64,000 bases of DNA, from NCBI GenBank assembly GCA_044892525.1, contig CM097885.1, positions 18,850,001 through 18,914,000 on the forward strand. Reading direction: 5' to 3'. The notes beneath the pieces are model-generated. The model searched no databases. It saw only the letters and a list, made by a program, of their open reading frames with translations, and was not told the origin of the DNA. Source of the stretch: Schmidtea polychroa (lineage: Eukaryota). Both the position numbers and the translations under genes were made by a program. This document shows positions 14,519-39,710 of the stretch, piece after piece (position 1 is the stretch's first letter; each line of letters opens with the position of its first letter).

Positions 14519-15697
14519 TTATTGATCGGCGTAGCGGAATCCTTTGATTCGCTGCGCAATCCTCTGTCTGCACATCGGACATTCCTTTACTTTTCTACTA
14601 CATGTGGCACATGCGATCAAATGTCCGCATGGCATATGAATAACTTCTACACTCCTCTCCCAACACATAGTACATTTGATATCTCGTAAGATAGCTGTTT
14701 TGACCATTGATTCTTCTTTTATTTTTGTTTCAGGTTTTTCTCTATACTGGGTTATCGCTCTGATCATATCGTACGTTGTTGTTGGTATATGTACATTTTT
14801 CTGTAGTTTCTCTCTAATCATGTTCTTTGCCCTTGTCGTGCCTATTCCGGCTGCTTTCAACGCTCTGCACATGTTGGGTTTGTCTACCACTTCGTCAACC
14901 TCTTCCTCTGTTACTAGTACTTCCGGATATTCGGTTTCTTGTTCGTTGTGATATAGGCACCATGCTTGATGTCTAATTTCTGGTATGCCTTCTTCCGGTA
15001 ATCTCTGTTGGCTTTCGCATCTTTCACACTTTAGTATTTGATTTTCTGTTAGGTAGAACCCTCTTATTGCTAATTCAGGTCCTCTCGTATCATCTCCGAA
15101 CGTTTTCATTCTATTATCTGCTATTTGCGTGAGGAATTCCCCTTCACAAGTTGGAACATACTCATCAACGATTCTGGTTATCGCGATGCTCATTTTCCCT
15201 CCTTTTTCGTCTTCAGTTTTCAATTTCTCCAAGGCTTCGTATTTGATTTCCGGTTTGTTGTGTACATCAAATCCCAGTACGAATAGACAAGTTGGGAATC
15301 GTCTACGATGTTCCTCCTTTGGGTGTTCTCCTTTTTTCCATTCTGCTAATTTCCCTTTACAGAAACGACATGTTACTTGATCGGGTATCTCTGGTTTTCC
15401 GGAGAAGAAAAATCCGTCGCGTGCTAGCGCTCGGCTCTGTTCCTTGGTGAAAATGGTCTGATGTTCAAATGACAGATATCTCTGGTTCTCACATCTGAAT
15501 TGTTCATTATCTCCCAGTTTCAAATTTTCGTGTACCCAATTATAATCGTTTCCCATTCTCCGATAATATGCGTAACTACTTGGTTTTGTTTTGCTGACTT
15601 CCGCATCCTTCACTCTTTCTCTAGGTGGCATATTGTCCTCTTCCTCTCTCATTGTGATCGTTTTCTTTCGGATATTCGGTCTCTCTTGATTAATCAT
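14519..15697 (-). CDS. Inhibitor-of-apoptosis (IAP) protein: BIR, degenerate BIR, C-terminal RING
   Basis: LARDGFFF..DQVTCRFC..LAEW...EH....PTC (BIR); RMKTF...LAIRGFY...CERC...H...C; CTMCWER..VIHMPCGHL.ACATC....CPMCR (IAP-type RING). Confidence 0.92.
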   Translation of the reverse strand: MINQERPNIRKKTITMREEEDNMPPRERVKDAEVSKTKPSSYAYYRRMGNDYNWVHENLKLGDNEQFRCENQRYLSFEHQTIFTKEQSRALARDGFFFSGKPEIPDQVTCRFCKGKLAEWKKGEHPKEEHRRRFPTCLFVLGFDVHNKPEIKYEALEKLKTEDEKGGKMSIAITRIVDEYVPTCEGEFLTQIADNRMKTFGDDTRGPELAIRGFYLTENQILKCERCESQQRLPEEGIPEIRHQAWCLYHNEQETEYPEVLVTEEEVDEVVDKPNMCRALKAAGIGTTRAKNMIREKLQKNVHIPTTTYDMIRAITQYREKPETKIKEESMVKTAILRDIKCTMCWERSVEVIHMPCGHLIACATCSRKVKECPMCRQRIAQRIKGFRYADQ

Positions 15698-17955: not shown

Positions 17956-20900
17956 TTATACCAGTGTCGCCATGGGGCCGGAATGCAGCGTGCGCATTCC
18001 CCCATATCTTTCGTCCGTTATTCGGTATATATCGACTTCGTGTGTCCATTCGTTCGGTGTGGGTATTCTTGGTAGTTCCGACATCCACAATCCGCTGGAT
18101 CCGGGATCCTCTACCACCTCGTATTCTTCTAGATTCAGATTCTCTGTTGGAATACCGTATTCAAATTTTTCCACTTTGGGCCATTTTCTTTGGTTTCTCG
18201 GTTTTTGTTTACATCTTTTGGTGGTTCTTATCCACTGAATCATTGCTAACGCTATTATCGTGCTTACTATCGCGCTAGTTATCCATATCATCTTTGTGAT
18301 GATCGTTGTTCCATTATTTGTTTTTTCTGTCGTTAATATTGTACTACCTGTGGTATTTGTTTCTGGTGCTTTGATTTTCTTGAATGCTTGATGTAATCGT
18401 TCCTTCTCTTTTTCTGTTAGGTGACTGTGATTTTCCCGTTTCTCTCCCCCTTTTTGATCTCGGGGTATCCACGGTATGTTTATTAATTGGGGTTTTTGTC
18501 GAGTTATTGGTTGACATACGCTGGTTCCTCTTCCTTTCTTAAGGATACATACTTGGTATCGTTCTTTCCGTTTCCCTGTCTCCATTTTAACGTCTGTACC
18601 TTTGTCTATTGGTGTTGTTGTGCAGTCGATTATTCCCGTCTTATCCATTACACATATCCTTATGATTGGTTCTCCTTCCTGGTTTTTGACTGTAATTACC
18701 TCTTCACCTTTCTTGTTGAGGTTAATAGTTATCTGCACTTCCCGTCTTTCGTCTTTAATTACTTCGTTAATCCATGTTGTTGTTGTTATTAATTCGGTTT
18801 GATTTTGCTCTGTTGTTGTTTTTGTACTAACTGATTTGTTTGGCTTCTTGGTTGTTATCCCCCTCAATGGATCTTGTTTCATTGCCATACTCTTTGGCTT
18901 GTCTTTTCTTGGTGCAGTTCTTGTTCCTTTACATACTACTATCCCTTGTGTTCCTGCGCATACCACAGTAGGGGTATTTGGTTTGACCTCTCCCCAGAAG
19001 AATTTGTGGTCTTGTGTCATATCAGTTATTATGCATATGTCTCTGTCTTCTCTGATGCATACATGTGTAATTGATCGACTCCCTTTATCTTCTATTTCGA
19101 TACCTTCTTCCAAAATGTTGAGTTGAAAATGTACTCCGGTTTCGTTGGCTCTTTCTAGCTCCATTTCCTTTGTTGATATGTCTCTACAGATGTCATAATC
19201 TCCACATAGCCTGGGATCTCTTTTTTGGCTGCTAAAAATCTTTCCTTTTGTTATCGATCTGAAATCACAACTTACTCCTGTTCCTTCCATTAGTTGCACA
19301 CATATTCCGACGGCATTTCCGTCGTAATCACTGACTTTTATCATAAATACTTCACCTTCTTGGGAAGCTTCTCTTACGATTCTCATATTTTTTGTTTCTG
19401 TTAAACAGATGGATGTTAATATTATAAATATTCTTTGTAGTAGGATTGGCTGGATTTGATTTCGACACACTATGCTATGTAGTGGGGACTTTCGTTTTTT
19501 GTTCTCCGTTTTGTCGAATCCTTGATCTTCACCTCGACATTGGTCTTCTTCGTCTTCTTCCAATTCCTCATCATCACTCGTTGTTTCTCCGCCTTCCGGA
19601 TTCTGTTCTCTGTCGTTTTCCTCTGGGTTGTTATCGTTATCCCCCATCCTTTCGTCGTCGTCGTCGTCGTCATTCCTCTCACCCGGGGTTTTCCTGAAAA
19701 TGTCGTCCTCGACATTTGCTGCTTTGATCATCTCCTCGTATTTTTTAATTATCTCTTTTTTGTCGTTGTGGATACTTTCTCGTTCTTCTTTGGTTCCTTG
19801 ATATTTCCGTTGTTTCCGGTGCCATTCCCACACTAGTATTCCTAGTTGCTTTTTCATCGCATGTGTTTTTGTGCATTTCCACCAATTACCTGTCAATTCT
19901 GTTCTATTTCTCTGTAATATTGCTTTAATGGTTTTTGGCATTGGTGGTCTTGAGTATATGGCGCTTCTTAGTACGATATTTTCGTTGTTTTGGAATTGAT
20001 TTATATCAATTACTTCCGCTCTTAATTCGTTTTGTTTCCATTTGATTAATATTGCTGCGGTTCTGTCTAAGTTTCCTCTGATGGCTTCCAGAATTGGTTC
20101 AATGCTCTGTCCCAACACCTCGGCTTCTTCGGTTGTTGCATTTCCTGTGATAAAGTTCACTATACTAGGTCTTTTTGACCTGACGGCATAACGTAATACG
20201 GTTCGTTGTTTGTTGTCTTTTTCTTTCAGCGTGGATCCCGTTCTTAATAATTCTCTGAGTACATCTCTTGACGCGCCTATTGCTATGGCTTTCATCAGTG
20301 GAGTTTTTCCTTTACTGTTTTTGACGTTTGTTGATTGTTTGCAGTTTTCCATTATTCGTATAATCTCTAAAGCTCGTTTTTCTTGTCCTGCTTTCACTGC
20401 ATGATGGATTGGCCAGTTATTACTCAAATCACTTGTTAGGAACATGATTGGTAATCTCCGGATTAGTTCATATATTTGAGTCGGTATTTGTAATCCTTCG
20501 GCATATCTTCGTCCTTTCGCATATCTTTCTGCTACTAACATTAGTTTGCCCAATACTTGGTATTTATTGGTTATATCGGCCCATTCTGGTACAATTTCTC
20601 GTGCTATTTTTACTGTCATATTCCATGTTGCTTGGCTCCTTGCCATTGCGTCAGCTTCGCTTTCTGCTTCAGTTCCTTTATGGGCGCTGCTGCTTGTTTC
20701 TCCTCTCAACATGAATATCCGTCTTGTCTGTGATCTAGTTAATCTACCGCTTACTTCTGGTTCCGTTGTGGCATTTGTTTGTGATCTCGTGATTATCCTT
20801 CTTGTTTCTGGATCTTTAGTGGCAGTTTTCGCCACTGCTTTGCATCGACATGTATTCACATAAATGGGTCTAATTAGTGGATTGTTAACCAACTTCACTC

Positions 20901-23900
20901 TAGCGTTGTTCTCGTTTACATAGATGATTTCATATGGCCCTCTGCCATTACGTTGTAATTTCTTTGCTGTTCCTGGGATTAATTCGGGTGTTTCTATAAT
21001 AACCCAATCTCCGATTTTAAATTGATGGTTTTGCACGTTCTTCTTTTTATCATGTAATTCCTTATAACTCTCTTGGTTGAATCGGATGTTCATCCCTGCG
21101 GTTTTCCATATTTCTTGCATTCTCTCCTTGAACTTTGTCACATAATCATCTATCTCCATATATTGTGAGATTGGCGGTTGGTATTCGAGATCCATCGGCA
21201 TGTTGCATTCCCTTCCATACATGAGTTTAAACGGACTCATTTTCGTTGCTGAGTGTATTGACATTCGATAAGCCATTAGGCACAACTTAATATATTCATC
21301 CCAGTCCTTTTGATGTTTACTCACGTAATTGGACATCATGTCTATTAGTATGCCGTTAAATCTTTCTGTCTGACCATTCGTTTGCGGGTGGTATGGTGAG
21401 GTTCTCAATTTGGCAATTCTAAAATAATTTGTCACTTCATTTATTATTTCGCTCATGAAATTAGTTCCTTGGTCAGTTAAGATTTGTTTTGGTGTTCCAT
21501 ATCTGCAGCAGATCTCTTCCACTAATATCCTTGCAACCGTTCGTGCTTTCTGGTCTGGCATCGCAAATGCTTCAGGGAACTTAGTCAGATAATCAGTTAT
21601 TACCAATATATACACATTTCCACTGTTAGTCTCTGGTAGTGGTCCAACTACATCCATTGCAATCATTGTCATCGGTTCTGGCGGTATCGGCATTGGTTTC
21701 AATGGTGGCTTTAGTTTACTGCCCGTTGTTTTTCTGGTTGCGCATATCAGGCAGTTCTTTATCCATTCTTTCACGTCATCGCTCATATTTGGCCAGTAAT
21801 ATTTCTGTTTGAGCCTTGCTTCTGTTTTCTTGGCTGACATATGTCCGCCCAATTTACCATCGTGGTATTGAATCATAATTGCTTTCCGTCTACTTTCTGG
21901 TAGACACATCAATCGTTTGTCGCCATCCATTACCAATAGCCATCCTTTCTCGATCGTATATCTGTGACGATTTTTCTCCATGTGTTCTTTTAGTCGATCA
22001 TCGTTGTTGAATATTTTCATATCGTTTTTTTCCAGGAACTCAATTATTAGTTTTAATTCATTGTCTTCCTTTTGTTCGTTCTTTAGATTGGTAAAATCGA
22101 TATCTTCCGCGATTATCAGGCATATTCGTCTGACGTCATGATCCATGAGTTCCTCAAATACAAATCTCGACATGCAGTCTGCATTTGCGTTTGCTTTTCC
22201 TGACTTGAATTTGATGTATGGGGAATATTCTTGTAACTGCATTGCCCATCTCATCAATCGACTAGATGCCTCTTTATGTTGGCCCAACCAAACTAGAGGT
22301 TGATGGTCCGTAGTAATAATTATCTCGTGTCCCCATAATAAATATTTGAAATGTTTTATCGCCTGAATTATTGCTAAGGCTTCTCTTTCTGTGACCGAGT
22401 AATTCTTCTCGTGTTTTTTGAACGTCTTGCTATAATATCCGATGACTCTTTCTCTTTTCTCCTCATCCCATTGTCCTAGCACAGCTCCTGATGCGTATCC
22501 ACTTGCATCAGTTGCTAATAAAAAAGGCTTTTTGAAATCTGGGTGGATTAAGATAGGCGAGGCTATTAGTTTATCTCTTAGCGATTCGAAAGCTATTTGC
22601 TGTTCCCTTTCCCACAGAAATGGAGTATCTTTTTTTGTTAGTTCTTGAATTGGTTTTGCGATAGTTGCATAATTTTTGATAAACTTGCGGTAGTATCCGC
22701 ATAATCCCAGAAATTCTTGTACCTGAGTCACGGTTTTTGGTATCGGACAATTCTTTATTTTCTCAACGTTTCTCGGATCTGGTTCTTTTCCTTTTGCCGA
22801 CACAATGTGTCCTAAAAATGTGACTCTCTCCTTTGCCCAGTCGCATTTTGACGGTTTCAATTTCAGCTTCCATTGTTTCAGTCTTATGAATACGTTTCTG
22901 ATGTCGATTAAGTGTTGCTCGAAAGTACCTGAATAAATTAACAGATCATCGATATACACCATACATTGTTTGATCCCGTGTGTCACAAAGTTCATACATC
23001 TCTGAAACGAAGCAGGTGCGTTTGTTAATCCAAATGGCATCTTTTTAAACTGATATAAATCTTTTCCGATGGTAAAGGCTGTCTTTTCTCTATCTTCCTC
23101 TTTAACTTTAATTTGCCAGTATCCACTCTTTAGATCTAAAGATGTAAAGTATGCTGCTCCATGCAACATCTGTAACATTTCGTTTATGTCTGGCAGTGGA
23201 TATGTATCTCTTTTTGTTACTGCGTTCAACCTCCGATAGTCAATACAAAATCTCTGTGTGCCATCTTTCTTTTTGACCATTACCACTGGGAATTGCCATG
23301 GTGAGCAACTAGGTTCTATTACCCCAGCATCTAACATCTTTTGTACTTCTTCCTCTGCTACCGTTTTTTGTGCTTCAGCCAATCGATATGGTCTTAACGT
23401 TATGGGTGTCTCATCTGTTAATGGTATAATGTGTTGAGTTACATCGCTAGTACCCAAATCCAAATCTGAAGCCGCAAAAATATCTTTAAACTCAATCAGT
23501 AGTTGTCTGAGTTGTTCCTTTTCGTCTTTATTTAGGAGTTCGCTATCGATGGTCCATAATTCTTTTTCGTCTGCTCCCTCGCTTTTTATCTCCGGTAGCT
23601 CAATGTTCATCATTGGTGTGAGTTTTCCAAGTCTCTCGTTTTCGTAGATTACTTTATCTTCCTCATCAAAATTGGTGATATTGATGGGTATCTCGTTATC
23701 CTCATTTATACTGACAATTTCTCTTGCCAATGGCAGCTCCCTTCTCTTCTCGAATTTTTGACTTGGTTCAAATATCATATCTCCTTTGGCTTCGTTATCG
23801 ACCTTGACATAACATATTGTCTGGGTACGTGCTGGTATTATCATTTTTTCGGAGCATCTCACTTCTGTTCTCATTGTGCATATCTGTCCAGTTTTATCTT

Positions 23901-26900
23901 TTAATTTCATGGAACTCAAATCAATCACAATTTCTTTCAATAATTCCGGCATTACATCTGTTCCAATTATACATGATACGCTTAGCTGTCTAATGACTGC
24001 GAGGTACGTTGTAACTTTAACCCCTTTATATTCAATCGTTGACCATACTCTTCCTACCACCGCTATGGATTGTTTGCTGCATGTTATTACATCCATGGTT
24101 GTCTCTTCAATGCATGGCCATAGTCTGCCTGGTAGCATATTCATATTTATTGCCGAAATATTTGCTCCGGTATCGATCATTGCATCCATTTCTATTCCGT
24201 TTACTTCGACCGTGATGGTTAATGATGGTCCGGCTGGTGTCTGCAATACCGCAATCGTTCGTGTCTCCACTTCTTGTTCTACACTTTTAGCCTGTTTGAT
24301 CATCGTTGGATCCATTGCTGCCCAATTTGGTTCATAAGCTGTTGGATAAATGTTCGGTATGGGTAATCTTCCGGTTCCCATTCTTATCCGTTCTCTCATT
24401 GTTCCTGGTCGTCGCATTGGTCCATTAGTTGGTGCTTGTAAATATGGGGTCTGTGAATACGGTGATCCCCATGGTTTCATTTTTTCGTTTTCCCAAGTGG
24501 CTGTATTTTTATTTATCAACATTGCTCCTCCTTGGTTATTATCATCGTCGTTGAAATCATCATTGTCGTTGTCACTATCATCGTCTCGTCTGAGGTTCAT
24601 CCACTTTTTCCACTTCCCGGTTCTTTTTGCTTTCTCTTGAGTTCTTTCTGCTTCTAATCTCATTATCACTTTGAACTTACGTCCGACTTCTTCGTCTGTC
24701 CCTTTCATTTGCGTTAGTATTTTCAACAATCTTTTTATTCGATGAATATCCTTTGAGTGTCCATGCAACACCATTGTTTTCGCTAAGAACGGTAAGAATC
24801 CAATTGCAAGTTTCCAATTTACTTTTCTCTCGCGCTTATAGATGTCAAAACATGCTAGCATCTGGGTTAGTATTACTCTGACTATTTGTATTATCAGAAT
24901 AATTCCGAGTATTCCTGCCATCATTTGGCCAAATACCAAAAATCGACCCCACATAGCCTTCATCATGTTTGCTGTTGCTTGTTGATAGTGACTTGGTGAT
25001 AATAATAGCTCGTAATTTGGGCTCTCCCCATAATTATTTCCTCCAGAAATAGTCACTATATTTGATAGGATCGCTTGTCTGTGTGCTGGGAATAACATGT
25101 GGGCCCTTGCTGATTCAAGATCTTTTGGTGTATATAATCCACTCTGTGATACGTCTATCGGCTTGAACTCTAATTCTGTTGTTAGTTCCGTTAATCCAAA
25201 TTTCTTGGGTGTCACTACGATTGTTTTACTTGGAAATTGAACCCATTGTCCATCTTCTTTTTCATACATTGGTCCATATGCATTACTGCAATTAAACAGA
25301 TTTGGCTGAAACCCTACCGGGTTCATTATCCTAGTGACTGCTTGCACAAACCTGGGTTTACCTTCGTGAATAATTTCGAGTTCGTTTGCACACTTATCCC
25401 TTGGTATTGTAGGGTTTTCCGGCAATCTTGCCATTATCTTTTTGCATTGGTAGGTGTACATCACTTCGCCCACGATTCGTCCGAAATATCCTTCCTGTAA
25501 TGGTAGTAGTGGAATTGCGTTATCTGGATTTGTAATCGCCATTGCTAATTTTGTTCTCAATATTTCTTTGTTGAGCAGGCAATCGTTTCTTAACAGATCA
25601 TGGTAGACTTTTTCCGTGGATGTTAATCCTCTGTGATATAAGAAATCCATCTTATTATTAGCGTATAAATATAATTTGACATCCTTTTCGCTTAGTCTTC
25701 CGACTGCATTTGCTAGGGTTCTCCGCGACAAGTAGATCCCTTTATAATTGGTGCTGATCACCATCTCATCGCATTTACTCACCATTTTGTTCTTTATGAA
25801 CCTCATTCCTATTCCATCGTCTTTGGAGATTATCGCTGTGGGTGTTACTTCCGATTCCAATTTCGATGTTATTACGTCTTCCCTGAATCCTTTCCTTGCT
25901 CTCAATTCTTCCATCGCTCGTCTCTCTGCTTCTCCTTTTGGTTCACTGTACACTTTCCCTTGGATTTCTTCGAATATTGCTGTCTTGAGTAACATTAGTC
26001 GACATACTTTCTGATCTGCGTGGTATACCAGAGTTGACATTCCGGTTGAACATGATCGATCTGATGCGAGACAGCTTGGGTATTTCTTCATTGCTTGCGT
26101 GTCAGGGTCAAAGTAGCCTTGATACTTTTCCAATTTAGCTTCGTAACTTTCTATTACGACCACTCCACTAACCAGTTGTCCGTTCAAGGTGTATGTTCCT
26201 GTCTCACATGTTCCGTCTCCTTTAGTGATTCTGCCCGCCGTATATACGCGAGTCGTTTTTATTTTTCCTGGTTCTGCAGCGATTTCAATCCCTTGCCTTA
26301 AGTGGATTCTCCCTGATCGGAACCCTTCCTCGCATTCCTCTCTTGATAGTAATATTACTGTCGATTCCAATCCTGGTTCTATGATTGTTGAGTGTGAGGA
26401 TGAACCGCAGTGATGTGCGAATATCTTTCTGGTTACCGTACACTCTTGGACCATAGTTTTGATGAAATCTGCTTCTTGATATACGTTGTACGAGACTGAT
26501 GCCATGACTGTTTGTAATTTTCTTGGGTTTGCCGCTTTACAGTCTTCCGTATCCTTTAATGAATATTTCTCATGGATTTTTATGTTGTCGCAGTCGTATA
26601 CTGCAAATGACTCCGTTCCTTTGATACACATCATCCATATCAATATCGTGGTTATTATGGCATTCATTCCCTTTCGACTTGCTCTTGGGTCGTTTATATT
26701 GATTGTTCCTTCGAATTCAGTTAGCAAATCGCGTAACTTTGCTTGCATCATTTCCGTTTGATCTTTCTTCCCAGTTGATTCGATGAAGCTTCTCCATCCC
26801 CCTTGTTCAAGTATATATGGTTCTATTGATCGTTTAATTATTTCTGTTACTGTGAATTCGTAACCCGTTGCGTTATATTTTGGCATTCGTTTTTTATATT

Positions 26901-29900
26901 GACCGATAACGTTATATACTAAATATGCTAATCCCACTAAAAATCGATTTTGGTCCTCTGATCTGCTTAATAGATGTTCCACAATTAATCTGAGTTCCAC
27001 GGGATCTTTTAACGTTAATCGAATTTTATTATCCATGATTTTCATTATTATCGGTTTCAATACTGCCCATAATTGTTTGGCTTCGGTCGGAATATTATCC
27101 TTCCTCATGACTCTTTTCACTTCTGGATTTGCTAATGCTAACATGTTGGCTAATAGGTCATTTATCCATCGTGTCCCTTGTTCTCGGACGCTTGTCTTCA
27201 CTTTCACTTGTTTTACTAATGCACTTAGTTTATCCATTTTAGTTTTTACCTGCTCCATTTGCGCCTGAACTTTGGATTTTGGTTCGATCTCTGCTTTATC
27301 TGTTTTTGGTCTTCCTCTTGTTCGTCGATCCATAGCTGTTCCGGTTTCTTTCCGTTTTGGCGGATTGTAAGTTGTATCTTTTGACGTGGTCGCTCCTGGA
27401 TCTACTCTCCAGTTGCTCCATTCATCGGTTGTGGTTACATCTTTATTGGCACCTCTTTCCACGTTATCTAAATCCGTCTCGGCTTCCGTCGTTTCCACTG
27501 GTTGTCTCTGCGCGCATACAAATCCATCTAAATCATCAGTTGTCGGTTCACCTTCGTCGATAAATAGATCTCCTGATTGCGATGCTCTCATAATCTCGCC
27601 TGCTTCTACTATCTCTTGTAATTCATCCAGTATTTCGTCTTCTCCCGTTGTTTCGATCGTCACTTCACTAACCGCATTTGGAACTTCTGGTGTGTCCAAA
27701 CTTCCTGGTTGTTGGGTGGATGATTTTTGCTTTATCTCTCTTCTCCTTAGCTCTCTACCTGCAATTTTACTCACCGTTAATCTGTTCACAATTTCTCCTT
27801 GGAGTGGTGTCACACCGATCTCAATATCGTCGTCTAATGATCGTCCCTCGTGTTGTAAGTGGAATGGGAGTTCATAAGGTATTCTCTTTTTAACTTCTCT
27901 GACTTTAGCTGTCGTATAGAATTCCTTTTCCATTGGTTCAAAATCTGGCATGAATATTTTTAATTGATATTTCTCAGGTGAGTTTTCGGCCCACTCTCGT
28001 TGTTTCCATTTCCGGATGATTTCACCAAATTGTTCAGGGTACCATACGTATACCCGTCGATATTCTTCAATCGCTTTAACGATCTTTCGTAGGTTTTGAA
28101 TCCTTTTGCATGATTCGGCTATCCATTTTGCTAGTTCTACCACCGCTCGTCGACGATTTTTCGCCCCGTTTTGTAATATCTCCATCAACTCCTTACATTT
28201 TTGTGCTTCCAACAATGTTGCTGCTTCCTCCTCATCTGCATCTGCGTCTATTGGTAGATGTCCTGAATCAGGCACTCTTCTCCTCATCATACAGATTCTC
28301 GGTTGATTTTCTGGTATGTTCAGTCGTTGGTTCATTTCTTGTTCTGTTTCAACTTCTACTCTGATCTGGATAGCATTGTTTTTCACAAATTTTGACTGCT
28401 CATTCTCAATGTAACTTAGACGTATTAATTTAGGTGTCCCAGAAGCGATATTTTCTGATGTTGTTGGTCGTTGATAGCAGGCGCTCCTTGGATCTGGTTT
28501 CAATGTTTCTTTATGCATGTTAAGGCTATCTTTCAATGGTTCGATTGCTATCGTCACTTTTCTGCTAAACGGCCATGGTACCTTGTCGTCATAATTTCCT
28601 TTGCAGATGGCGAAGAATGCCGACACATAATTTCCTTTACCTATCCCGTCTCCGTTCGGGTATATTCGCAATTTCATCTTGTACTCACCTAATCCTGAGT
28701 AGAACGGTGGACTTACTAATCGTGTGATTTTCTCTTCCTTTGCTGATTTTATCTTTTCCATCCAATTCTCAATTTTCCACGTGAATGGTGCTAACCTTAC
28801 TGGTTCTCGTATCTCCTCATCTTCTCCTGATGGTAATTCATTTTGGAATTCTTGTGGTAATATATCCTGGTAAGTATCGATCGGTTTCTCTCTTACCCAT
28901 ACTGCTGCGATCTCTTCGGGTATATTATCTATCCAATTTGGTTCCAACTTTTGCTGCTCCCAATCCCATCGAGCTTCACTTTCGATCCACACTTTTTTCC
29001 ATGGTATCAGTTTGCAATCTTCGTCATTGAAGGCTGCTAGTTTTAGTTTATCATCCTTTAGCCAATGGTTATAAATATCTATTATTCGATCCATCTTTGC
29101 TCTCATTCCCCATTGGAATCTTTTAACTTGTTGCTCGGTTTTCGTGGCGTTTTTGTGCCCACCAGATGGTTCATCCATCGCGATTATATTGATGACGGCT
29201 CCGTCTTCCCAGATTCCTAGTTCGTAAATTCCAGTTCGGTCTCCTCTTTCCAGCATGTGCCGGTTGTACATTATTATCACATCTTCGATCATTCCATCCT
29301 CACTATTTTCTCGAGCTTTTTGGATGATCTCTTGATCTATGATTTGCACTAACTCGTCAACTTGGCAATCGGGATTAACTTCTATTATTTGTTTCTCTTC
29401 ATTTGGCAACTTCACCTTTATTTTTATCGTTTCATGCTCGCATTTGGTTCTCTCGTATTCTCCGTATTTAGATATCAATTCTGTCGCTCGTTTGTCTTCG
29501 AATCTCATGATTTCCGTGTCTCGTACGTCTTTAACGAATTGTTTCATTAGTTGTGGCCATCTTTCTCTCAGTCTATTAATGTATTTCCTTGTCTGATCGA
29601 TAGCTTGTTTGACTAAGATTATTTGATTTTCTTTCATTATTTTTCGTTCGATCTTTTCCAATTCTGGTTCCACTTCATTGTTAAACACTTGTTGGATTTT
29701 CTTGAACATTTCTGCTACCGAGTCGTCATCTCTGGTTTTCTCTAAGGTTAAGATGTTAGTTTCGTTTGGCCATATCATCGCATCTACCAAATGTATGCCC
29801 ATTTTAACTTTGTAACCATCGACATATAATTGTTTATTTTTATGGCTCGTTCCCATTTTTTCCTGTACCCAGTTGTACAGTTCATCGGTATTTGTTCCTT

Positions 29901-32022
29901 TTAATTCAATAGTCTGTATCTGAATCTCGGGGTGTTGAATACTTACTTGATATTGATCTGGGCCTGCTTCCTTTAGTTTCTCTTTATATTTTGTTGCTAC
30001 ATCTTTCCATGCTGCCGTTATTATACCTCCTTCACACTGGTATACTTGAGTTATAAGTTTTAAGCATTTTCTGTATGTTAACTCGTTGATGTAGTTCTCA
30101 TTTCGCTCTATTTCTGTTACTGTGTCGAGAATTTCCTCGAATATCTCTTCTTCATCTTTTTCTATCATTGATTTCATGTCATCATTTTCACTCTCCTCAC
30201 TACTTTGAGGTGTTTCACTGTTTGGAGGTGTTTTCGGTTCGTTATTTTCCTCACTTGACTGAAATAATTCGCCTCCCAGGCTACTCACCTCACTTTTCTC
30301 ATCTTCCTGATCCGTCTGATCGCTCCGCATTTGTCTCAGCATGCTTATTTTAGCTTTGGTATGTGGTTCCTTCTTTTCAAACCACTCATTTTTCCTGAAC
30401 CAATGCTCTTTCACTTTTTCTTTTATTTGTTCCTCAGTTAATGTAGGATTTTCGTTTTTGATTCTGTCTTCGATTTTTTGTAGTAGTACCCTCTGAATTC
30501 GATTTTTTGTAATTATCTCATTGCTTTTTGGTTCGTCTTTACTCTCATCTCTCTTTTGTCTCCTTTCTTTCTCCTCTTTGGTAAATTCTTTAATCAATTG
30601 TATTTTCTCTTCACTGCTCAATTCTGTTCGTGGATCAATCTCATCTTCTTTTGTCGTTTTTATCTCCTTGTTTATTATCGGTTCACTCCCGTCGTTGTTA
30701 ACACACTGCTCCGCAGTGTGCGATTCCTCTTTATTTGTTAATCTCATCATATTTATTCTTCCGGGATTCGCTTCCCGTTGTTTCCATCTTTCTTGAATTT
30801 CTCTGGCTTCCTCGTTTTGTAATCTTTGCCATTCGACTCGTTGCTGATCTTGTTGTTGCTTACTTGGTTGGTTCCGGATTTCCTCGGTGCTCTGCATCAT
30901 GTTGATTCGTTGTTGTTGGTTATTAGTCGGTATTCGCAGGATCATATCTTTTAATTGTTCGATTTCCTGCATGAGGTTGATTTGTGTGTTCTGAACTGGA
31001 TTGTTTGATCCTGGTTGATTTGGTTTGGTTCTCATCGTGCATTCTCTTGCCATGTGTCCCGGCTGATTACAATTGTAGCAGGTTCTGGTTCCTCCTCTGC
31101 TCATAGACATCATGGGTCCTCTGCAGACATTTTCCGTGTGGCCTCTTCTCCCACACTTTTGACACATCCTTGCTTTATAACATTCATTGCTCCAATGCCC
31201 TGGTCGTTGGCATATGTTGCACGTTCGATTGTTGATGTCGTTGTTCCTGAAATTATTAGTAAAATTTTGAATATTACCTCCATTGTTTTGGTTTCTTGTT
31301 TGTGGAGTTTTGAACAACTGTTGCGATCCTGGGATAAATTGATTCATTACTGGATTTGCATTATTGACTTGGTTGTTTGTGGTTGTTGCTGTTGTTGCTG
31401 GAGCTGCTGGGGCTGCTGTCATTGCTGCTACTTGTATTGGTGTTAGGTAAGTTTCACATTTGTTAGCTATTTTTAGTGCTTCTTCCAGCGTCTCTGGTGC
31501 TCGGCATCCCAAAGTTGCTCGTATATCCTCCCGTTTCATGCCATCTACGAATACGGCTATTATTTTGTCTTCCGGAACTGGTTGATTTGAATCGAAGGCT
31601 TCTCGTGCTAGTCGTCTCAATTCGCATGCGTACAGTGCGTTGGATTCGTTATATTTCTGCTTTCGATGCAGAAAGTCTAACATTTTTCGATTTCCCTCTT
31701 TTTCGGTACCGAATGTTTTTATTAAAAATTCCTTGATCTCTTTCCACGTTCTCAACTTAGTTGCATCACATTTCGCCTCCAAGTATACATCTTGGGCGCT
31801 TCCCTTTAGATATAGGGGTATTCGTTCTCGTACGACTATGTCTGGCCAGTGACATATCGTAATGTATACTTCGAATTCCTTTATAAACGTTTCCAGCTGG
31901 TTTATATTTCCATCGAATGGCTCTCCTCGAAATTTCTCTCTGAATTCTCCAATGTTGACGTGCACATTACTTGTTTCCGGTGGGTCCGTTAGCCCTGTTA
32001 CATTTGGAATTCCGTCTGTCAT
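17956..32022 (-). CDS. Giant polyprotein Gag-UBL-UBL-MATH-UBL-Bcl2like-Env-PR-RT-RH-IN-ANK-membrane protein
   Basis: Frame is open from 32322 and the first ATG is at 32022 (the track starts at TTG 32244). CCHC x3 31039-31221; MATH ~28348-28788; DTG 24166-24174; YIDD 22945-22956; RNase H TDASG ~22500; integrase HHCC/DDE/GPY ~20900-21900; ankyrin ~20050-20415; C-terminal TM 18229-18291. Confidence 0.95.
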   Translation of the reverse strand: MTDGIPNVTGLTDPPETSNVHVNIGEFREKFRGEPFDGNINQLETFIKEFEVYITICHWPDIVVRERIPLYLKGSAQDVYLEAKCDATKLRTWKEIKEFLIKTFGTEKEGNRKMLDFLHRKQKYNESNALYACELRRLAREAFDSNQPVPEDKIIAVFVDGMKREDIRATLGCRAPETLEEALKIANKCETYLTPIQVAAMTAAPAAPATTATTTNNQVNNANPVMNQFIPGSQQLFKTPQTRNQNNGGNIQNFTNNFRNNDINNRTCNICQRPGHWSNECYKARMCQKCGRRGHTENVCRGPMMSMSRGGTRTCYNCNQPGHMARECTMRTKPNQPGSNNPVQNTQINLMQEIEQLKDMILRIPTNNQQQRINMMQSTEEIRNQPSKQQQDQQRVEWQRLQNEEAREIQERWKQREANPGRINMMRLTNKEESHTAEQCVNNDGSEPIINKEIKTTKEDEIDPRTELSSEEKIQLIKEFTKEEKERRQKRDESKDEPKSNEIITKNRIQRVLLQKIEDRIKNENPTLTEEQIKEKVKEHWFRKNEWFEKKEPHTKAKISMLRQMRSDQTDQEDEKSEVSSLGGELFQSSEENNEPKTPPNSETPQSSEESENDDMKSMIEKDEEEIFEEILDTVTEIERNENYINELTYRKCLKLITQVYQCEGGIITAAWKDVATKYKEKLKEAGPDQYQVSIQHPEIQIQTIELKGTNTDELYNWVQEKMGTSHKNKQLYVDGYKVKMGIHLVDAMIWPNETNILTLEKTRDDDSVAEMFKKIQQVFNNEVEPELEKIERKIMKENQIILVKQAIDQTRKYINRLRERWPQLMKQFVKDVRDTEIMRFEDKRATELISKYGEYERTKCEHETIKIKVKLPNEEKQIIEVNPDCQVDELVQIIDQEIIQKARENSEDGMIEDVIIMYNRHMLERGDRTGIYELGIWEDGAVINIIAMDEPSGGHKNATKTEQQVKRFQWGMRAKMDRIIDIYNHWLKDDKLKLAAFNDEDCKLIPWKKVWIESEARWDWEQQKLEPNWIDNIPEEIAAVWVREKPIDTYQDILPQEFQNELPSGEDEEIREPVRLAPFTWKIENWMEKIKSAKEEKITRLVSPPFYSGLGEYKMKLRIYPNGDGIGKGNYVSAFFAICKGNYDDKVPWPFSRKVTIAIEPLKDSLNMHKETLKPDPRSACYQRPTTSENIASGTPKLIRLSYIENEQSKFVKNNAIQIRVEVETEQEMNQRLNIPENQPRICMMRRRVPDSGHLPIDADADEEEAATLLEAQKCKELMEILQNGAKNRRRAVVELAKWIAESCKRIQNLRKIVKAIEEYRRVYVWYPEQFGEIIRKWKQREWAENSPEKYQLKIFMPDFEPMEKEFYTTAKVREVKKRIPYELPFHLQHEGRSLDDDIEIGVTPLQGEIVNRLTVSKIAGRELRRREIKQKSSTQQPGSLDTPEVPNAVSEVTIETTGEDEILDELQEIVEAGEIMRASQSGDLFIDEGEPTTDDLDGFVCAQRQPVETTEAETDLDNVERGANKDVTTTDEWSNWRVDPGATTSKDTTYNPPKRKETGTAMDRRTRGRPKTDKAEIEPKSKVQAQMEQVKTKMDKLSALVKQVKVKTSVREQGTRWINDLLANMLALANPEVKRVMRKDNIPTEAKQLWAVLKPIIMKIMDNKIRLTLKDPVELRLIVEHLLSRSEDQNRFLVGLAYLVYNVIGQYKKRMPKYNATGYEFTVTEIIKRSIEPYILEQGGWRSFIESTGKKDQTEMMQAKLRDLLTEFEGTININDPRASRKGMNAIITTILIWMMCIKGTESFAVYDCDNIKIHEKYSLKDTEDCKAANPRKLQTVMASVSYNVYQEADFIKTMVQECTVTRKIFAHHCGSSSHSTIIEPGLESTVILLSREECEEGFRSGRIHLRQGIEIAAEPGKIKTTRVYTAGRITKGDGTCETGTYTLNGQLVSGVVVIESYEAKLEKYQGYFDPDTQAMKKYPSCLASDRSCSTGMSTLVYHADQKVCRLMLLKTAIFEEIQGKVYSEPKGEAERRAMEELRARKGFREDVITSKLESEVTPTAIISKDDGIGMRFIKNKMVSKCDEMVISTNYKGIYLSRRTLANAVGRLSEKDVKLYLYANNKMDFLYHRGLTSTEKVYHDLLRNDCLLNKEILRTKLAMAITNPDNAIPLLPLQEGYFGRIVGEVMYTYQCKKIMARLPENPTIPRDKCANELEIIHEGKPRFVQAVTRIMNPVGFQPNLFNCSNAYGPMYEKEDGQWVQFPSKTIVVTPKKFGLTELTTELEFKPIDVSQSGLYTPKDLESARAHMLFPAHRQAILSNIVTISGGNNYGESPNYELLLSPSHYQQATANMMKAMWGRFLVFGQMMAGILGIILIIQIVRVILTQMLACFDIYKRERKVNWKLAIGFLPFLAKTMVLHGHSKDIHRIKRLLKILTQMKGTDEEVGRKFKVIMRLEAERTQEKAKRTGKWKKWMNLRRDDDSDNDNDDFNDDDNNQGGAMLINKNTATWENEKMKPWGSPYSQTPYLQAPTNGPMRRPGTMRERIRMGTGRLPIPNIYPTAYEPNWAAMDPTMIKQAKSVEQEVETRTIAVLQTPAGPSLTITVEVNGIEMDAMIDTGANISAINMNMLPGRLWPCIEETTMDVITCSKQSIAVVGRVWSTIEYKGVKVTTYLAVIRQLSVSCIIGTDVMPELLKEIVIDLSSMKLKDKTGQICTMRTEVRCSEKMIIPARTQTICYVKVDNEAKGDMIFEPSQKFEKRRELPLAREIVSINEDNEIPINITNFDEEDKVIYENERLGKLTPMMNIELPEIKSEGADEKELWTIDSELLNKDEKEQLRQLLIEFKDIFAASDLDLGTSDVTQHIIPLTDETPITLRPYRLAEAQKTVAEEEVQKMLDAGVIEPSCSPWQFPVVMVKKKDGTQRFCIDYRRLNAVTKRDTYPLPDINEMLQMLHGAAYFTSLDLKSGYWQIKVKEEDREKTAFTIGKDLYQFKKMPFGLTNAPASFQRCMNFVTHGIKQCMVYIDDLLIYSGTFEQHLIDIRNVFIRLKQWKLKLKPSKCDWAKERVTFLGHIVSAKGKEPDPRNVEKIKNCPIPKTVTQVQEFLGLCGYYRKFIKNYATIAKPIQELTKKDTPFLWEREQQIAFESLRDKLIASPILIHPDFKKPFLLATDASGYASGAVLGQWDEEKRERVIGYYSKTFKKHEKNYSVTEREALAIIQAIKHFKYLLWGHEIIITTDHQPLVWLGQHKEASSRLMRWAMQLQEYSPYIKFKSGKANANADCMSRFVFEELMDHDVRRICLIIAEDIDFTNLKNEQKEDNELKLIIEFLEKNDMKIFNNDDRLKEHMEKNRHRYTIEKGWLLVMDGDKRLMCLPESRRKAIMIQYHDGKLGGHMSAKKTEARLKQKYYWPNMSDDVKEWIKNCLICATRKTTGSKLKPPLKPMPIPPEPMTMIAMDVVGPLPETNSGNVYILVITDYLTKFPEAFAMPDQKARTVARILVEEICCRYGTPKQILTDQGTNFMSEIINEVTNYFRIAKLRTSPYHPQTNGQTERFNGILIDMMSNYVSKHQKDWDEYIKLCLMAYRMSIHSATKMSPFKLMYGRECNMPMDLEYQPPISQYMEIDDYVTKFKERMQEIWKTAGMNIRFNQESYKELHDKKKNVQNHQFKIGDWVIIETPELIPGTAKKLQRNGRGPYEIIYVNENNARVKLVNNPLIRPIYVNTCRCKAVAKTATKDPETRRIITRSQTNATTEPEVSGRLTRSQTRRIFMLRGETSSSAHKGTEAESEADAMARSQATWNMTVKIAREIVPEWADITNKYQVLGKLMLVAERYAKGRRYAEGLQIPTQIYELIRRLPIMFLTSDLSNNWPIHHAVKAGQEKRALEIIRIMENCKQSTNVKNSKGKTPLMKAIAIGASRDVLRELLRTGSTLKEKDNKQRTVLRYAVRSKRPSIVNFITGNATTEEAEVLGQSIEPILEAIRGNLDRTAAILIKWKQNELRAEVIDINQFQNNENIVLRSAIYSRPPMPKTIKAILQRNRTELTGNWWKCTKTHAMKKQLGILVWEWHRKQRKYQGTKEERESIHNDKKEIIKKYEEMIKAANVEDDIFRKTPGERNDDDDDDERMGDNDNNPEENDREQNPEGGETTSDDEELEEDEEDQCRGEDQGFDKTENKKRKSPLHSIVCRNQIQPILLQRIFIILTSICLTETKNMRIVREASQEGEVFMIKVSDYDGNAVGICVQLMEGTGVSCDFRSITKGKIFSSQKRDPRLCGDYDICRDISTKEMELERANETGVHFQLNILEEGIEIEDKGSRSITHVCIREDRDICIITDMTQDHKFFWGEVKPNTPTVVCAGTQGIVVCKGTRTAPRKDKPKSMAMKQDPLRGITTKKPNKSVSTKTTTEQNQTELITTTTWINEVIKDERREVQITINLNKKGEEVITVKNQEGEPIIRICVMDKTGIIDCTTTPIDKGTDVKMETGKRKERYQVCILKKGRGTSVCQPITRQKPQLINIPWIPRDQKGGEKRENHSHLTEKEKERLHQAFKKIKAPETNTTGSTILTTEKTNNGTTIITKMIWITSAIVSTIIALAMIQWIRTTKRCKQKPRNQRKWPKVEKFEYGIPTENLNLEEYEVVEDPGSSGLWMSELPRIPTPNEWTHEVDIYRITDERYGGMRTLHSGPMATLV
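24760..26667 (-). other. Envelope glycoprotein domain (chuvirus-G-like) within the polyprotein
   Basis: Internal signal MNAIITTILIWMMCIKGTES, then AVYDC..YSL....C, HCGSSSH, SREEC, GEVMYTYQC, C.NEL, SGLYT..L....MLFP; TM at 24857-24950. Confidence 0.8.
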
Positions 32023-33113
32023 TATTTCTTGACACAAAATTGTTATATTGGTTGACTCTGAACTATTTCCTTCCTCGTCTGATGATTCAATGTCACTTAT
32101 CGGATCTAGTTCGGTTCGTTTAAGATCGTCGCTGTTCTCAAATTCGTTTGTTAAACTGTCTGATTCAAATACTGTTTCTACTGATGCTGGCTTCCTGTGT
32201 AGTTTTCTGTTGGTCTTGGCCTTTTGTATCTCTTCCTTTTCCAATAAACTGAGGTTTCCTTTACTTTTTCGCCTCGTTCGGTTAGCTATGCTATCAATTT
32301 TTCCTCCTTTTAATATCCTTTGCTAAATTTTCTACTTTGTCAATCGAGCTCGATGTTTTCTAAGTATTTTTCTCGCTTTAATCTTTACGATTCTCTAACT
32401 CTTCTTGGATTTGGTTTTATTAATTTCCTTGATTCTTCGCTTCTAATTGATTTCTCTATATCTCTTGATTTCTATTGCTTTCTTGATTTCTTTGATTTCT
32501 TTCTGAATTGTTTGCTTTATTCTAAAATAATTAACACCTCTAGTACATATCATAAATTCTCTTTGTTAAACCCTTCATTTACTTTCCCTTTTCCCTTTAT
32601 TTTACTGTCCCTTCGCTTCAAATTTTCTAGCTTTTCTACACTTCTCGCTATTCGCCCCATTTTGATTTTAAGTTGATTTTAAATTATCTATAACTCGTAT
32701 CAATTATCTATATAGTCGTATCAATTATCTATCCCTTTTATTATTATCATAGAAATATAATATTAATCACATAAATATCAAAATAAACATATCATTAATA
32801 AATAAAATTCAATAATTCAACTACTATCTATTCGTTCGCTTTTCCCCATCCAAAAACTGGTTTAATTTTCGCTTGCGCCGGCGCTTTATCATAATTCTCC
32901 TCTACTCATTACATATTTATCGCACTTAATCTATTTCAGTTTAATCAATTTCATAGTTAATCATTGATGCTTTGGTTCGCGCGACCTCTACATCCACCTT
33001 TATTTACCATCGGCTCTCTGGCCGGTTTGTTCAACTCCTTTATTTTCATTTAAATCATTTCACTCAATTACCATCGGCTCCTTGGCCGGTTTAATCAACT
33101 CATTTTAATCTCA

Positions 33114-33425
33114 TGAAGTCTTTTACGACTCCTAGACGCCTGGGCTTTTACACCATTACGCCATATAATCTACTATTACCCATCAACGCTTTGGTTTGTT
33201 AGACCTCCGCGTCGGCATCGGCTTCCGGCCGGTTTAATCAAAATTGAAGTCTTTTACGACTCCTAGACGCCTGGGCTTTTACACCATTACGCCATATAAT
33301 CTACTATTACCCATCAACGCTTTGGTTTGTTAGACCTCCGCGTCGGCATCGGCTTCCGGCCGGTTTAATCAAAATTGAAGTCTTTTACGACTCCTAGACG
33401 CCTGGGCTTTTACACCATTACGCCG
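33114..33425. repeat. 131-bp tandem repeat (~2.4 copies) in the 5' leader
   Basis: Unit TGAAGTCTTTTACGACTCCTAGACGCC... restarts at 33114, 33245 and 33376; degenerate sub-units extend to ~32970. Confidence 0.9.
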
Positions 33426-34834
33426 TATTCGCGGTCTTCGGTCCCTGACCGGTTTCAAATGCCCTAAATGAGGTTTCTTCAACCCCCAGACGCCTTCGGT
33501 TTTAACACCTACTATCGTCCCTACCGCGATTAAATTGAGTTGACAGTTGACTTTCGGGCTAATCAAAAATTCGAGGCTCCTCCTACTCCAACTCTTAATC
33601 TGCTGAGGCCTCACAACTGGCTCAATTCTTGGCCGCTTATTGAAAAGAGTCTAATACCGGTAACTCTAATCTCATCGCCGTTTCACTGGGCCTATCGGTA
33701 CTCGGTGTGGGCATCCGGGTTTTGTACCGACCCCTGCTAGCAATAATCACGAAGAAAAAACATCCTATCTATCAGGATTTAAAAAAAAAACACGGAAATG
33801 CCTAATCGCCTTGATCGTGATTCTCAAAAGTGATGAACCAGATCTCCCGACTAGTGAAGATAAAAGGAAATTGGGTATGCAGTTGACTCTCGGTCTCCCG
33901 CCTCACAACTGGTCCAATCTTGGTTGCCTGTTGAGTACGAGTTCTTTACCGGTTGACTCGCATCTCACAACCGTTTCACTGGGCTCCTTGATACTCGGTG
34001 TAGGTAACTGGGTCTCTCTCGCTCGCTACCCTTCCGGGTTTTTGTATCAAGTCCCGCTAGCAACTCAAAAAGGTGCGCCCAATACTCGGTGTGGCATCCG
34101 GGTTTTTGTATTGGGTGATCCAGCATCATCAGTCCCTTGGCTGATAATCTCCTGGACACTACAGTCCGGTGGTTAGCCGCTGTACTCGGGTGCCTCATCA
34201 CTCGCTAGGGAAAAATCATTATTTTCATCTGATTTGAAGTCCAAAAACGGTTTCTTCAAATCCGCAGCTGCTCTCGGATTAAATTTTTAACATTTAGCGC
34301 GTGTTTTTCAATTTTTATTTTATTTTTCTATTTTTATTCGCCCTTTTAGTTAGTCCCAGTCTCCCAGACAAAAATATAATAATCGCGTTGGTTCGTTTCC
34401 CACAAGTGGTGATCAGTCACTGGACAGAAACTCCCCAACATTTGCGATGGATCCTACTACATTCTCTCATCAGGGTGATCAGGATTTCCCCATCCGGGCA
34501 AGTGTCGTAAGGACGATTCACTTGTCATCCCCTCATTATCGTATCTCTTTATGCCAAAATAACAAACAGGAAGAAAAGAAAATTGGAAATAAAAATCGTA
34601 CTGATCTTAGCGATCAGCTCATTCATACGACTATGATCAGTCCTGCATTCAATTCTGATTTTAGTTCTAATTGCTGTGTTGCTTGTCTATTTATTTAACG
34701 TATTCTGTGTTCTTTATATGTCTATGTTCATCGTATGTTTTATACCTTTCGGTTGCTATAATGGATTTTTAATATAATTTACTAATTTTTTCACTCCATA
34801 TTCATTCACAAGAAATTTATTTGACAACATCTCC

Positions 34835-36034: not shown

Positions 36035-36441
36035 AATTTGTATGGTGGGTTACTGGTGGTTGAATGATTGAGTGCTGTTACCAGCGTAACCCAAAATACA
36101 ACATTGTTTTTTCCGCTTGGTACCCGTTGAGTGATCAACGTTGGTACTGTACCAAGGGTTGAGTACTCGCAAAAAGTGAGCGCATCAAAGCACTATAGTT
36201 GTCGAGTACTCCGTGGGTTCACGGACTACCGATAGAAGGTGTGTGTCCGATTTCTCAGGTCCCTTTATCAAAATTGTTTTCCCAACCTTATGCACAAACT
36301 CTCATTTCCCAGGCAATCATAAACTGTACTAGTCATTATTTTATCACTACAAAACGTGCAGTATTTTAACAAGGAACATATTATTTGAAGACTACCACCA
36401 TACATAAAAATACTACAAAACACCTAAAACCGAATATAAGT

Positions 36442-36912
36442 TCAAACAGGCTTATTGGTAGGACTGGCCAATTCCGTCGCATCTGCTAGTGACGAATTTG
36501 CTTGTCGCTCGTATTCGGCCAGTCTAGCTTTCTTCAATTTTTCCCGAATATTTCGGCCTAACCGCTTTCTTGTGGGTTTCTCTTTCGCGGCCGGGGGGTA
36601 TATTGCTGCTAGTTCCACGGTCAACGGCCGGATTTGGCTTATGGCGGCTCCGTGAACTACTTGTTCATTGCGTTCGGTTTTTAACGCGCGGAGCTGGAGT
36701 TTCAGTGCCCGGATCTCCATCTGATCCTGCGCAGCTTGCGTCTGCAGTTGAAGGACCTGCGCCACCTTCTTTTTCATATCCTCGGGACTAAACCAGGTGC
36801 TTTCTAGTTCCCGGCATCGTCCCTTGAGCTTGTCTACTCGTATGCGGAGCTCCTCGGACTGTTTTTGAGCATCTGCTCTATCTCTTCGCAGATTTTCCAA
36901 TAGTTTGAACAC
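36442..36912 (-). CDS. LTR-encoded coiled-coil protein (5' LTR copy)
   Basis: Identical translation to 6558..7028. Confidence 0.7.
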   Translation of the reverse strand: MFKLLENLRRDRADAQKQSEELRIRVDKLKGRCRELESTWFSPEDMKKKVAQVLQLQTQAAQDQMEIRALKLQLRALKTERNEQVVHGAAISQIRPLTVELAAIYPPAAKEKPTRKRLGRNIREKLKKARLAEYERQANSSLADATELASPTNKPV

Positions 36913-37121
36913 TAGATAAATTCAACGATTATATTCTTGCAGCATACTCTTCATTCAATTATAAAATAAAATCAATATTATAAATAAACATAGTTTCGGA
37001 TGTTAAGCACGCAATACACAAGATGATTTATTAAAAGGACTGAAATAATTATCACTAAAATCAAAGTTTAATAAAGTCACAACTGGATGATAATTTGCAA
37101 AAACAAAATTTTGACGATGAG

Positions 37122-39627: not shown

Positions 39628-39710
39628 GCTTACTATCGATTTTGGAAATTTCGTCACAAAAATTTGGCATAAAAGTGATTGATTGTGACTGAAACGTGTC
39701 AGTATATATA
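39628..39710 (-). promoter_or_regulatory. Candidate LTR core promoter and first splice donor
   Basis: Minus strand: TATATATA (39710-39703), Inr-like TCAGTC/TCACTT downstream, then GATA|GTAAGC donor at 39633. The TATA block is retained in relics at ~45615 and ~53684. Confidence 0.5.

Follow-up and report, generated by a model that had tools for sequence, protein, structure and literature searches.

The window analysed here comprises 64,000 nucleotides of Schmidtea polychroa (assembly GCA_044892525.1, contig CM097885.1, positions 18,850,001 to 18,914,000 of the forward strand; positions below count from its first letter). On its minus strand, from 6159 to 40366, lies an intact element of 34,208 bp, thus longer than 30 kb. 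This element is a Ty3/gypsy long terminal repeat (LTR) retrotransposon of the GAG-ENV-POL type and Burro-like. Its LTRs end in TG...CA, a 4-bp target-site duplication (ATAG) flanks it, and in its polyprotein open reading frame (ORF) Gag is followed by protease (PR), reverse transcriptase (RT), RNase H (RH) and integrase (IN) in that order. Along the ORF, Pfam recognizes a capsid (CA), the three CCHC knuckles of the nucleocapsid (NC), MATH, a Monjiviricetes-type fusion protein, retropepsin, RT, RNase H, integrase and ankyrin. A search with the Pol region matched Ty3/gypsy-type polyproteins with RT-RH identity up to 59%, so that the assignment is one by sequence match. Contigs from four runs span the polyprotein ORF with many variants (at least 1,498 differences). 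A sequence-only reading of this DNA had listed nine pentapeptides, written as [RQKT]-I-x-x-[MLI], as a protease cleavage map marking the domain boundaries of the polyprotein. We consider it likely that the element's own retropepsin processes this protein within its flexible linkers, recognizing [R/Q/K]-[I/V]-x↓x-[M/L/I], where from sequence we infer cleavage, register, enzyme and product sizes alike.

All nine pentapeptides were found exactly where that reading had placed them in the minus-strand ORF (32322-17956). Their distances from the neighboring domains were also correct: 18 amino acids (aa) past MATH, 14 before and 19 after the Pfam match to PR, and 33 past RNase H. As a recurring marker, the written pattern did not hold up, with 23 matches in the ORF against 20.0 ± 4.3 in 1,000 shuffles (P = 0.26). 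Four of its 14 unlisted matches fall in delimited domains (MATH, IN and two in the ankyrins), and three further ones, at aa 801, 1079 and 1407, fall in modelled strand or helices. For the pattern as written, this comes near to the equal frequency inside folded domains that the reading itself had named as evidence against it. Evidently, the nine had been picked on a tighter likeness, with a small or polar third residue and a hydrophobic fourth. The pattern narrowed in this way, [RQKT][IV][NCSAF][MLTVA][MLI], has 11 matches, namely the nine, QVAAM at aa 297 and RICVM at aa 4555. All 11 lie outside delimited domains, where 0.72 were expected; the 2,275 aa of delimited domains contain none, with 0.9 expected, a difference that alone is not significant. 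In the proposed register, all ten proposed sites (the nine and QVAAM) carry I or V at motif position 2 and M, L or I at position 5. The narrowed pattern is post hoc, defined from the listed sites, and was therefore tested on data outside its definition. Backed by these out-of-sample tests, the narrowed signal is real at the level of sequence.

We built a matrix solely from the four sites at ancestral junctions and scored 4,784 positions of the ORF. RICMM after MATH came first, with the other listed sites outside the training set ranked as in Table 1; the unlisted matches RICVM (aa 4555) and RIFII (aa 4297) came second and ninth. Overall, four non-training matches reached at least 12.8 bits with 0.07 expected, and six reached at least 9.4 bits with 0.64 expected; neither count occurred in 5,000 shuffles. 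RIFII is located within, and RICVM behind, a hydrophobic segment of signal-like character that precedes the C-terminal membrane anchor, and because of this position they would be out of the protease's reach, RICVM being probably luminal.

Conservation was assessed in a sister lineage represented by P0158 and P0160, which are about 49% identical to our polyprotein and identical to each other at 259 of 275 residues where they overlap. This lineage keeps all six testable sites (peptides in Table 1), among them five of the five testable sites from the original nine. The narrowed core occurs five times in P0158 with 0.73 expected (P = 0.0015) and twice in P0160 with 0.46 expected (P = 0.07), every time at a homologous site and nowhere else in the 1,156 and 882 aa of these proteins. 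Likewise, the top scores of the ancestral-site matrix in the sisters are the homologous sites (5/5 in P0158, 2/2 in P0160). Over the six sites, identity to the sister is 5/6 at P3 and 6/6 at P2, compared with 1-3/6 at the ten upstream positions.

The Pol-region search yielded 37 long proteins and 120 listed shorter ones, the latter being the best 120 of 1,501. We hand-picked 23 relatives by score, RT-RH identity or a shared fusion domain, without a tree. Motif discovery in 69 anchored junction windows from these relatives, with our polyprotein excluded, returned x-[VI]-[ANL]-[ATSM]-[ILV] with a log-likelihood of 131.6, against at most 90.7 in 12 shuffles. Trimmed windows and a window background were adopted here after a whole-protein background had failed, giving linker composition and the conserved IN helix instead of the motif. 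For the RH/IN linkers, 126 of the 157 proteins were usable and 99 were left after removal of near-duplicates. The core [IV]xx[ILVM] appeared within the first 20 residues in 65 of the 99, against 48.7 in shuffled linkers (maximum 60 in 500 shuffles); the originally written pattern appeared in 7, against 4.2. The narrowed pattern had 0 to 3 matches in each of 12 long relatives, with 1.1 to 1.5 expected. Since the core is common and the full pattern rare in relatives, the core is clade-wide and the R/Q-I-x-M-M flavor specific to this lineage. Relatives carry [VI]-x-x-[ILV] at four junction types: the NC end, the PR start, RH/IN and post-IN. Within the corresponding windows of our polyprotein, a core matrix made from relatives only placed QINLM, TIAVL, RIFML and QVAAM first, together with the position adjoining RICLI (Table 1). 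For the post-IN junction, a 22-aa window stopped short of the site and a 40-aa window reached it.

Table 1. Features of the element and proposed cleavage sites, in the order of the minus strand. Ranks refer to the ancestral-site matrix over 4,784 positions, "best of" to the relatives-only core matrix within a junction window; pLDDT, predicted local distance difference test of the structural model.
Feature	Position	Strand	Remarks
5' LTR	36043-40366	-	4,324 bp; 0 mismatches to 6159-10482
Polyprotein ORF	17956-32322	-	4,788 codons stop to stop; first Met aa 101 (32022)
Capsid (Ty3_capsid / Retrotrans_gag), aa 135-292	31447-31920	-	Pfam E 1.2e-6 and 4.1e-7 on fragment
QVAAM, aa 297, probable CA/NC site	31420-31434	-	5 aa past capsid match; best of 70; QVAVL in P0158
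NC, three CCHC knuckles	31039-31221	-	
QINLM, aa 447, site after NC	30970-30984	-	best of 40 with core columns only; site here in relatives; QINVM in P0158
RINMM, aa 472, Gag-tail site	30895-30909	-	rank 6; RINVM in P0158
RINMM, aa 522, Gag-tail site	30745-30759	-	rank 5; RINMM in P0158
KISML, aa 658, ahead of acidic linker and ubiquitin-like block	30337-30351	-	rank 16; HINML in P0158 and P0160, upstream flank diverged
Probable ubiquitin-like fold 1, aa 791-859	29746-29952	-	model: beta-grasp-like strand/helix order, pLDDT ~80
Ubiquitin-like fold 2 (weak), aa 966-1047	29182-29427	-	sub-threshold UBX-like Pfam match, best E 0.009; partly folded in model
MATH (TRAF-type) domain	28351-28785	-	PF22486 E 6e-29; pLDDT >90
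Post-MATH linker, possible duplicated cleavage cassette	28258-28365	-	resembles Gag-tail linker 30718-30825
RICMM, aa 1342, after MATH, clearest cargo-boundary site	28285-28299	-	rank 1; RISVL in P0160
BCL2-like region (weak)	26773-27210	-	named after published Burro annotation (PMC6431247); phmmer to Bcl-xL E 0.55-0.99
Signal-peptide-like segment and Env (gB / Monjiviricetes-type fusion protein) with membrane anchor	24763-26667	-	PF24664 E 9e-68; hydropathy peak aa 2460-2495
TIAVL, aa 2689, PR N-terminal site	24244-24258	-	best of 23
Retropepsin, catalytic DTG aa 2717	23878-24219	-	Pfam; Foldseek to Ddi1 and retroviral proteases, best E 2e-7
QICTM, aa 2813, PR / dUTPase-like junction (doubtful)	23872-23886	-	rank 10
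dUTPase-like domain	23614-23868	-	Foldseek match to yeast dUT1p E 1.7e-4; no Pfam match
RT and RNase H	22165-23568	-	Pfam; YIDD present
RICLI, aa 3399, RH/IN site	22114-22128	-	site here in relatives; relatives-only matrix peaks one residue downstream
Integrase	20833-22080	-	Pfam H2C2 and rve; D, D, E motifs present
RIFML, aa 3868, post-IN site, ancestral in clade	20707-20721	-	best of 35 (40-aa window); TIAYI, AICMM, QISML in relatives
Ankyrin repeats	20146-20409	-	PF12796 E 7e-8
RICVM, aa 4555, unlisted, high-scoring	18646-18660	-	rank 2; between hydrophobic segments near aa 4293-4310 and 4679-4697
3' LTR	6159-10482	-	4,324 bp

On balance, the element's own retropepsin probably acts on most of the listed sites. 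Four of them lie at junctions with sites in relatives, and those testable in the sister lineage are kept. Aspartic-protease cleavage at the motif, as the sequence-only reading had proposed, is thus supported as probable for most sites, while its rule of cutting between hydrophobic residues, the manner of human immunodeficiency virus (HIV) protease, gives way to a likelier Ty-type rule. We propose that the dimeric retropepsin would read a beta-branched P2 and a hydrophobic P2' in the Ty-type manner, with the motif taken as P3-P2-P1↓P1'-P2' and its third residue probably followed by the cut. At the NC end, the PR start, RH/IN and post-IN, the [VI]-x-x-[ILV] core would be an inheritance from the wider Ty3/gypsy group, and Arg or Gln at P3 together with a Met-rich prime side would be the version of this lineage. 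With this register, plausible Gag products would be CA of 23.0 kDa and NC of 16.7, with spacers of 3, 6 and 16. From Pol, a PR of 13.5 kDa, a dUTPase-like-RT-RH product of 68.3 and an IN of 54.9 are predicted; if the cut at QICTM did not occur, PR would remain on RT. Env is predicted at 89 kDa, its N-terminus being set by signal peptidase. The cargo would be released as two or three multi-domain blocks and not module by module: a ubiquitin-like (UBL)-UBL-MATH block of 80.5 kDa, a helical / BCL2-like block of 64.9 and an ankyrin-membrane tail of 105.2.

As a complete map, the original list needs revision. The probable CA/NC site QVAAM had been missed and QICTM is doubtful, whereas most other listed sites are supported as predicted substrates. 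For QICTM, the odds of being a real site are about even. A protease's C-terminal strand can end at its cut site, as in HIV protease.

The captured modules were also said to have been fitted with the element's own cleavage sites. Four of the ten proposed sites lie in Gag or its tail and four at Pol junctions, so this holds only for RICMM after MATH and, loosely, perhaps for KISML, which is about 130 aa ahead of the first ubiquitin-like fold. The further step, that such sites make the modules integrated functional products, does not follow, as the presence of a site does not demonstrate the function of a module. In relatives the post-IN site precedes quite different modules, for example a second protease-like domain or a signal peptide; since it is kept whatever module follows, it was not fitted to the ankyrins. 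Env begins after a signal-peptide-like segment, without a motif site. Ahead of MATH, and on both flanks of the BCL2-like region, we found no conserved site. A candidate before MATH, EIAAV at aa 1137, scores well with the relatives' core matrix and was discounted because it is not kept in P0160.

We surveyed 149 other MATH homologs for the origin of RICMM. The alignment reached the domain end in 138, of which 112 stop within 15 residues; the other 26 have longer tails, and in none of these does the motif occur in the first 45 residues. RICMM was therefore probably not brought in with the domain. When the motif was masked, the best match of the RICMM flanks among 694 aligned positions was the Gag-tail linker at aa 521-522 (z 3.6 to 4.3 over four window sizes), and in the reciprocal search from that linker the peak among 786 was aa 1342. 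These matches lead by little (118 against 115 in the reciprocal search, and with one window size aa 522 itself is only tied), and both linkers are rich in E, Q and R. Likeness between the site flanks at the DNA level was near null, so that no recent duplication is visible, and the flanks of QINLM and the two RINMM sites showed no significant mutual likeness at the protein level. As a reasonable lead, though somewhat less likely than not, the post-MATH linker of about 36 aa could have arisen as a copy of the Gag-tail stretch surrounding RINMM 522, by which a host-derived, normally C-terminal MATH domain would have gained a predicted protease-cut end inside the polyprotein. If true, copying a site already present in the protein would offer giant retroelements a general way of freeing captured host modules as separate products.

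Several results weigh against cleavage at these motifs by the element's own enzyme. The pattern as first written is at chance level in the ORF, and P1' in this element is mostly hydrophobic, unlike the Ty1 average. The matrix thresholds were chosen after the scores had been seen, and at a threshold low enough for KISML the excess is gone (12 matches with 9.5 expected, P = 0.23). The second-ranked match, RICVM at aa 4555, lies away from any known junction. At QICTM, the residues I-C form a short strand at an ordered junction (block pLDDT 77 in the model), and a counterpart is present in none of the 17 aligned relatives. Within the junction windows, the relatives-only matrix fails to pick RICMM and KISML, and when all six columns are used QINLM and RICLI are lost too; as a whole-protein predictor it performs poorly, placing the nine sites between ranks 30 and 787 of 4,783. 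Close pairs among the relatives inflate the motif likelihood against shuffles. As P0158 and P0160 are nearly identical, the sister lineage amounts to one comparison only, and of 46 background hydrophobic pairs with polar surroundings 27 are conserved, giving a chance of about 0.04 that six of six would be. On the other side, TIAVL and RICMM lie in coil modelled as disordered (pLDDT below 50 and about 35, respectively), the catalytic motifs of PR, RT and IN are present and the two LTRs are identical.

In one alternative, only the canonical sites (CA/NC, NC end, PR start, RH/IN and post-IN) would be cut. KISML, RICMM and the repeats of the Gag tail would then be left over from short internal duplications or be structural elements, with the cargo staying on a long Gag-derived precursor. 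Such an account fits foamy virus polyproteins, which are processed at few sites (PMC3185560), as well as the modelling of KISML as a low-confidence helix (pLDDT about 46 to 48) and the likeness of the post-MATH and Gag-tail linkers, which persists with the motif masked and could reflect shared ancestry. Nevertheless, in the sister lineage the core persists at aa 658 and 1342 next to a flank that has diverged, and the narrowed core is absent from the rest of the sister proteins, so we regard this account as unlikely. Less likely still, the motif would be unrelated to proteolysis, just a short hydrophobic strand of a generic kind that occurs in polar linkers and caught the eye. The out-of-sample enrichment and conservation, and the same core at the same junctions of relatives, speak against this, even though the written pattern is at chance, QICTM overlaps a strand, and aa 4297 in the signal-like segment and aa 4555 in the C-terminal region also score high. 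Hardly to be expected, finally, is a role of the motifs in docking or degradation, or as targets of a host protease, as the ubiquitin- and apoptosis-related cargo might suggest: the sites match the Ty-type P2/P2' profile and coincide with junctions processed by Ty3-type proteases, such as CA/NC (PMC10076021). We thus favor processing by the element's retropepsin.

Regarding the domain assignments, a ubiquitin Pfam match was looked for in the first ubiquitin-like fold and none was found. Directly past the second ubiquitin-like region, two glycines stand side by side at aa ~1051-1052 (~29170-29160, minus strand) but are absent in P0160; such a Gly-Gly pair after a ubiquitin-like unit is reminiscent of ubiquitin precursors. 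Pfam and atlas searches gave no support for the BCL2-like region, a stretch unfolded in the model, and returned nothing for a Burro-type Ubi2/SUMO-like domain between MATH and Env. The Env signal peptide is a by-eye reading, and a hydropathy scan did not pick that segment. The structural matches of the protease and the dUTPase-like domain come from one model spanning aa 2671-2960. Ahead of the first Met, 100 codons (32322-32023, minus strand) are open and align to the N-terminal coding part of P0158 (40%) and P0159 (86%); the true translation start of this copy is therefore ambiguous. Past integrase and ankyrin, aa 4293-4697 (19446-18232, minus strand) comprise a signal-like segment, about 370 aa without a Pfam or atlas match and a membrane anchor. 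An atlas search with this C-terminal region returned nothing usable, and the region may be a second membrane protein, a partner of the gB-type Env. In several relatives a signal-peptide-like stretch, again read by eye, directly follows integrase. Eight relatives (P0005, P0006, P0008, P0010 and P0013-P0016) have two or three protease-like D[TS]G domains per polyprotein, usually one directly after the post-integrase site.

Six accessory ORFs lie past the polyprotein (17807-10837, minus strand), including a TRAF-like gene with zf-TRAF and a second MATH domain and an inhibitor-of-apoptosis (IAP)-like gene at 14519-15697 with BIR (E 1e-15) and RING (E 3e-12), as in the IAP-like gene of Burro. Upstream of the polyprotein, a 160-aa RING ORF (35317-34835, minus strand) also matches the narrowed core, with EICVM in the stretch that separates its coiled segment from the RING. 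The 5' leader at 33114-33428 has a tandem repeat with a 131-nt unit in two full copies and a partial third. Outside the element, long inverted repeats at 2136-4281 have arms 99-100% complementary and are possibly a small DNA transposon or foldback element. The flanking region also contains two intronless RRM ORFs of about 250 aa each, at 1128-1895 (minus strand) and 62988-63743 (plus strand), about 73% alike in DNA and in inverted orientation.

The closest known architecture is that of Burro1/GYPSM1, giant planarian gypsy-like LTR elements which share a length of more than 30 kb, multi-kb LTRs and a polyprotein of about 4,800 aa (PMC6431247). They also share Gag, three CCHC knuckles, MATH, an in-frame Env before PR, a dUTPase-like domain between PR and RT, RT-RH-IN and ankyrin, with BIR and RING within the element. 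A single ORF of about 4,900-5,100 aa is taken as typical of Burro, and our ORF fits this type. The 4,788 codons found here, stop to stop, compare with 4,873 aa in GYPSM1 and 5,140 aa in a Dugesia tigrina element (PMC6431247). This likeness is one of architecture against a published description; no named Burro protein was among the search matches. The BCL2-like region of Burro and its UBL between MATH and BCL2 were not confirmed by our own searches. Among Burro families, MATH is reported both in the polyprotein and as a separate ORF, and Burro1 reportedly aids planarian stem cell survival via its captured IAP module (as cited in PMC13465017). The titles and abstract openings searched contained no Burro cleavage map, although one may be published elsewhere. 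The HSV/gB-type (HSV, herpes simplex virus) GAG-ENV-POL errantiviruses of Platyhelminthes, Nematoda and Bryozoa likewise have a gB-type Env between Gag and Pol, to which our element adds in-frame cargo blocks (PMC13524379); a word search of that paper's main text finds "cleavage" only for furin sites.

With regard to cleavage sites, those of Ty1 have Val or Ile at P2 and P2' and hydrophilic P1 and P1' (PMC6952103), and foamy virus sites are similar to yeast Ty sites (PMC3185560). Our element shares with Ty1, Ty3 and foamy viruses the Val/Ile P2, the hydrophobic P2', a polar or small P1 and a hydrophilic P3 (PMC6952103, PMC3185560). It is unlike them in its strong Arg/Gln preference at P3, in Met/Leu at P1' and P2', and in having about ten sites in one polyprotein, some of them outside Gag and Pol. 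The map supplies exact peptides and product sizes for the processing of a giant polyprotein, with cargo predicted to be freed in three larger pieces (UBL-UBL-MATH, BCL2-like and ankyrin-membrane tail) instead of single domains. Both the type of element and the Ty-type P2/P2' rule are already known, so a specialist's surprise should be moderate. Judged by its sequence, the motif signal is real, probably functional and ordinary in kind, a lineage's version of the rule known from Ty elements and foamy viruses.

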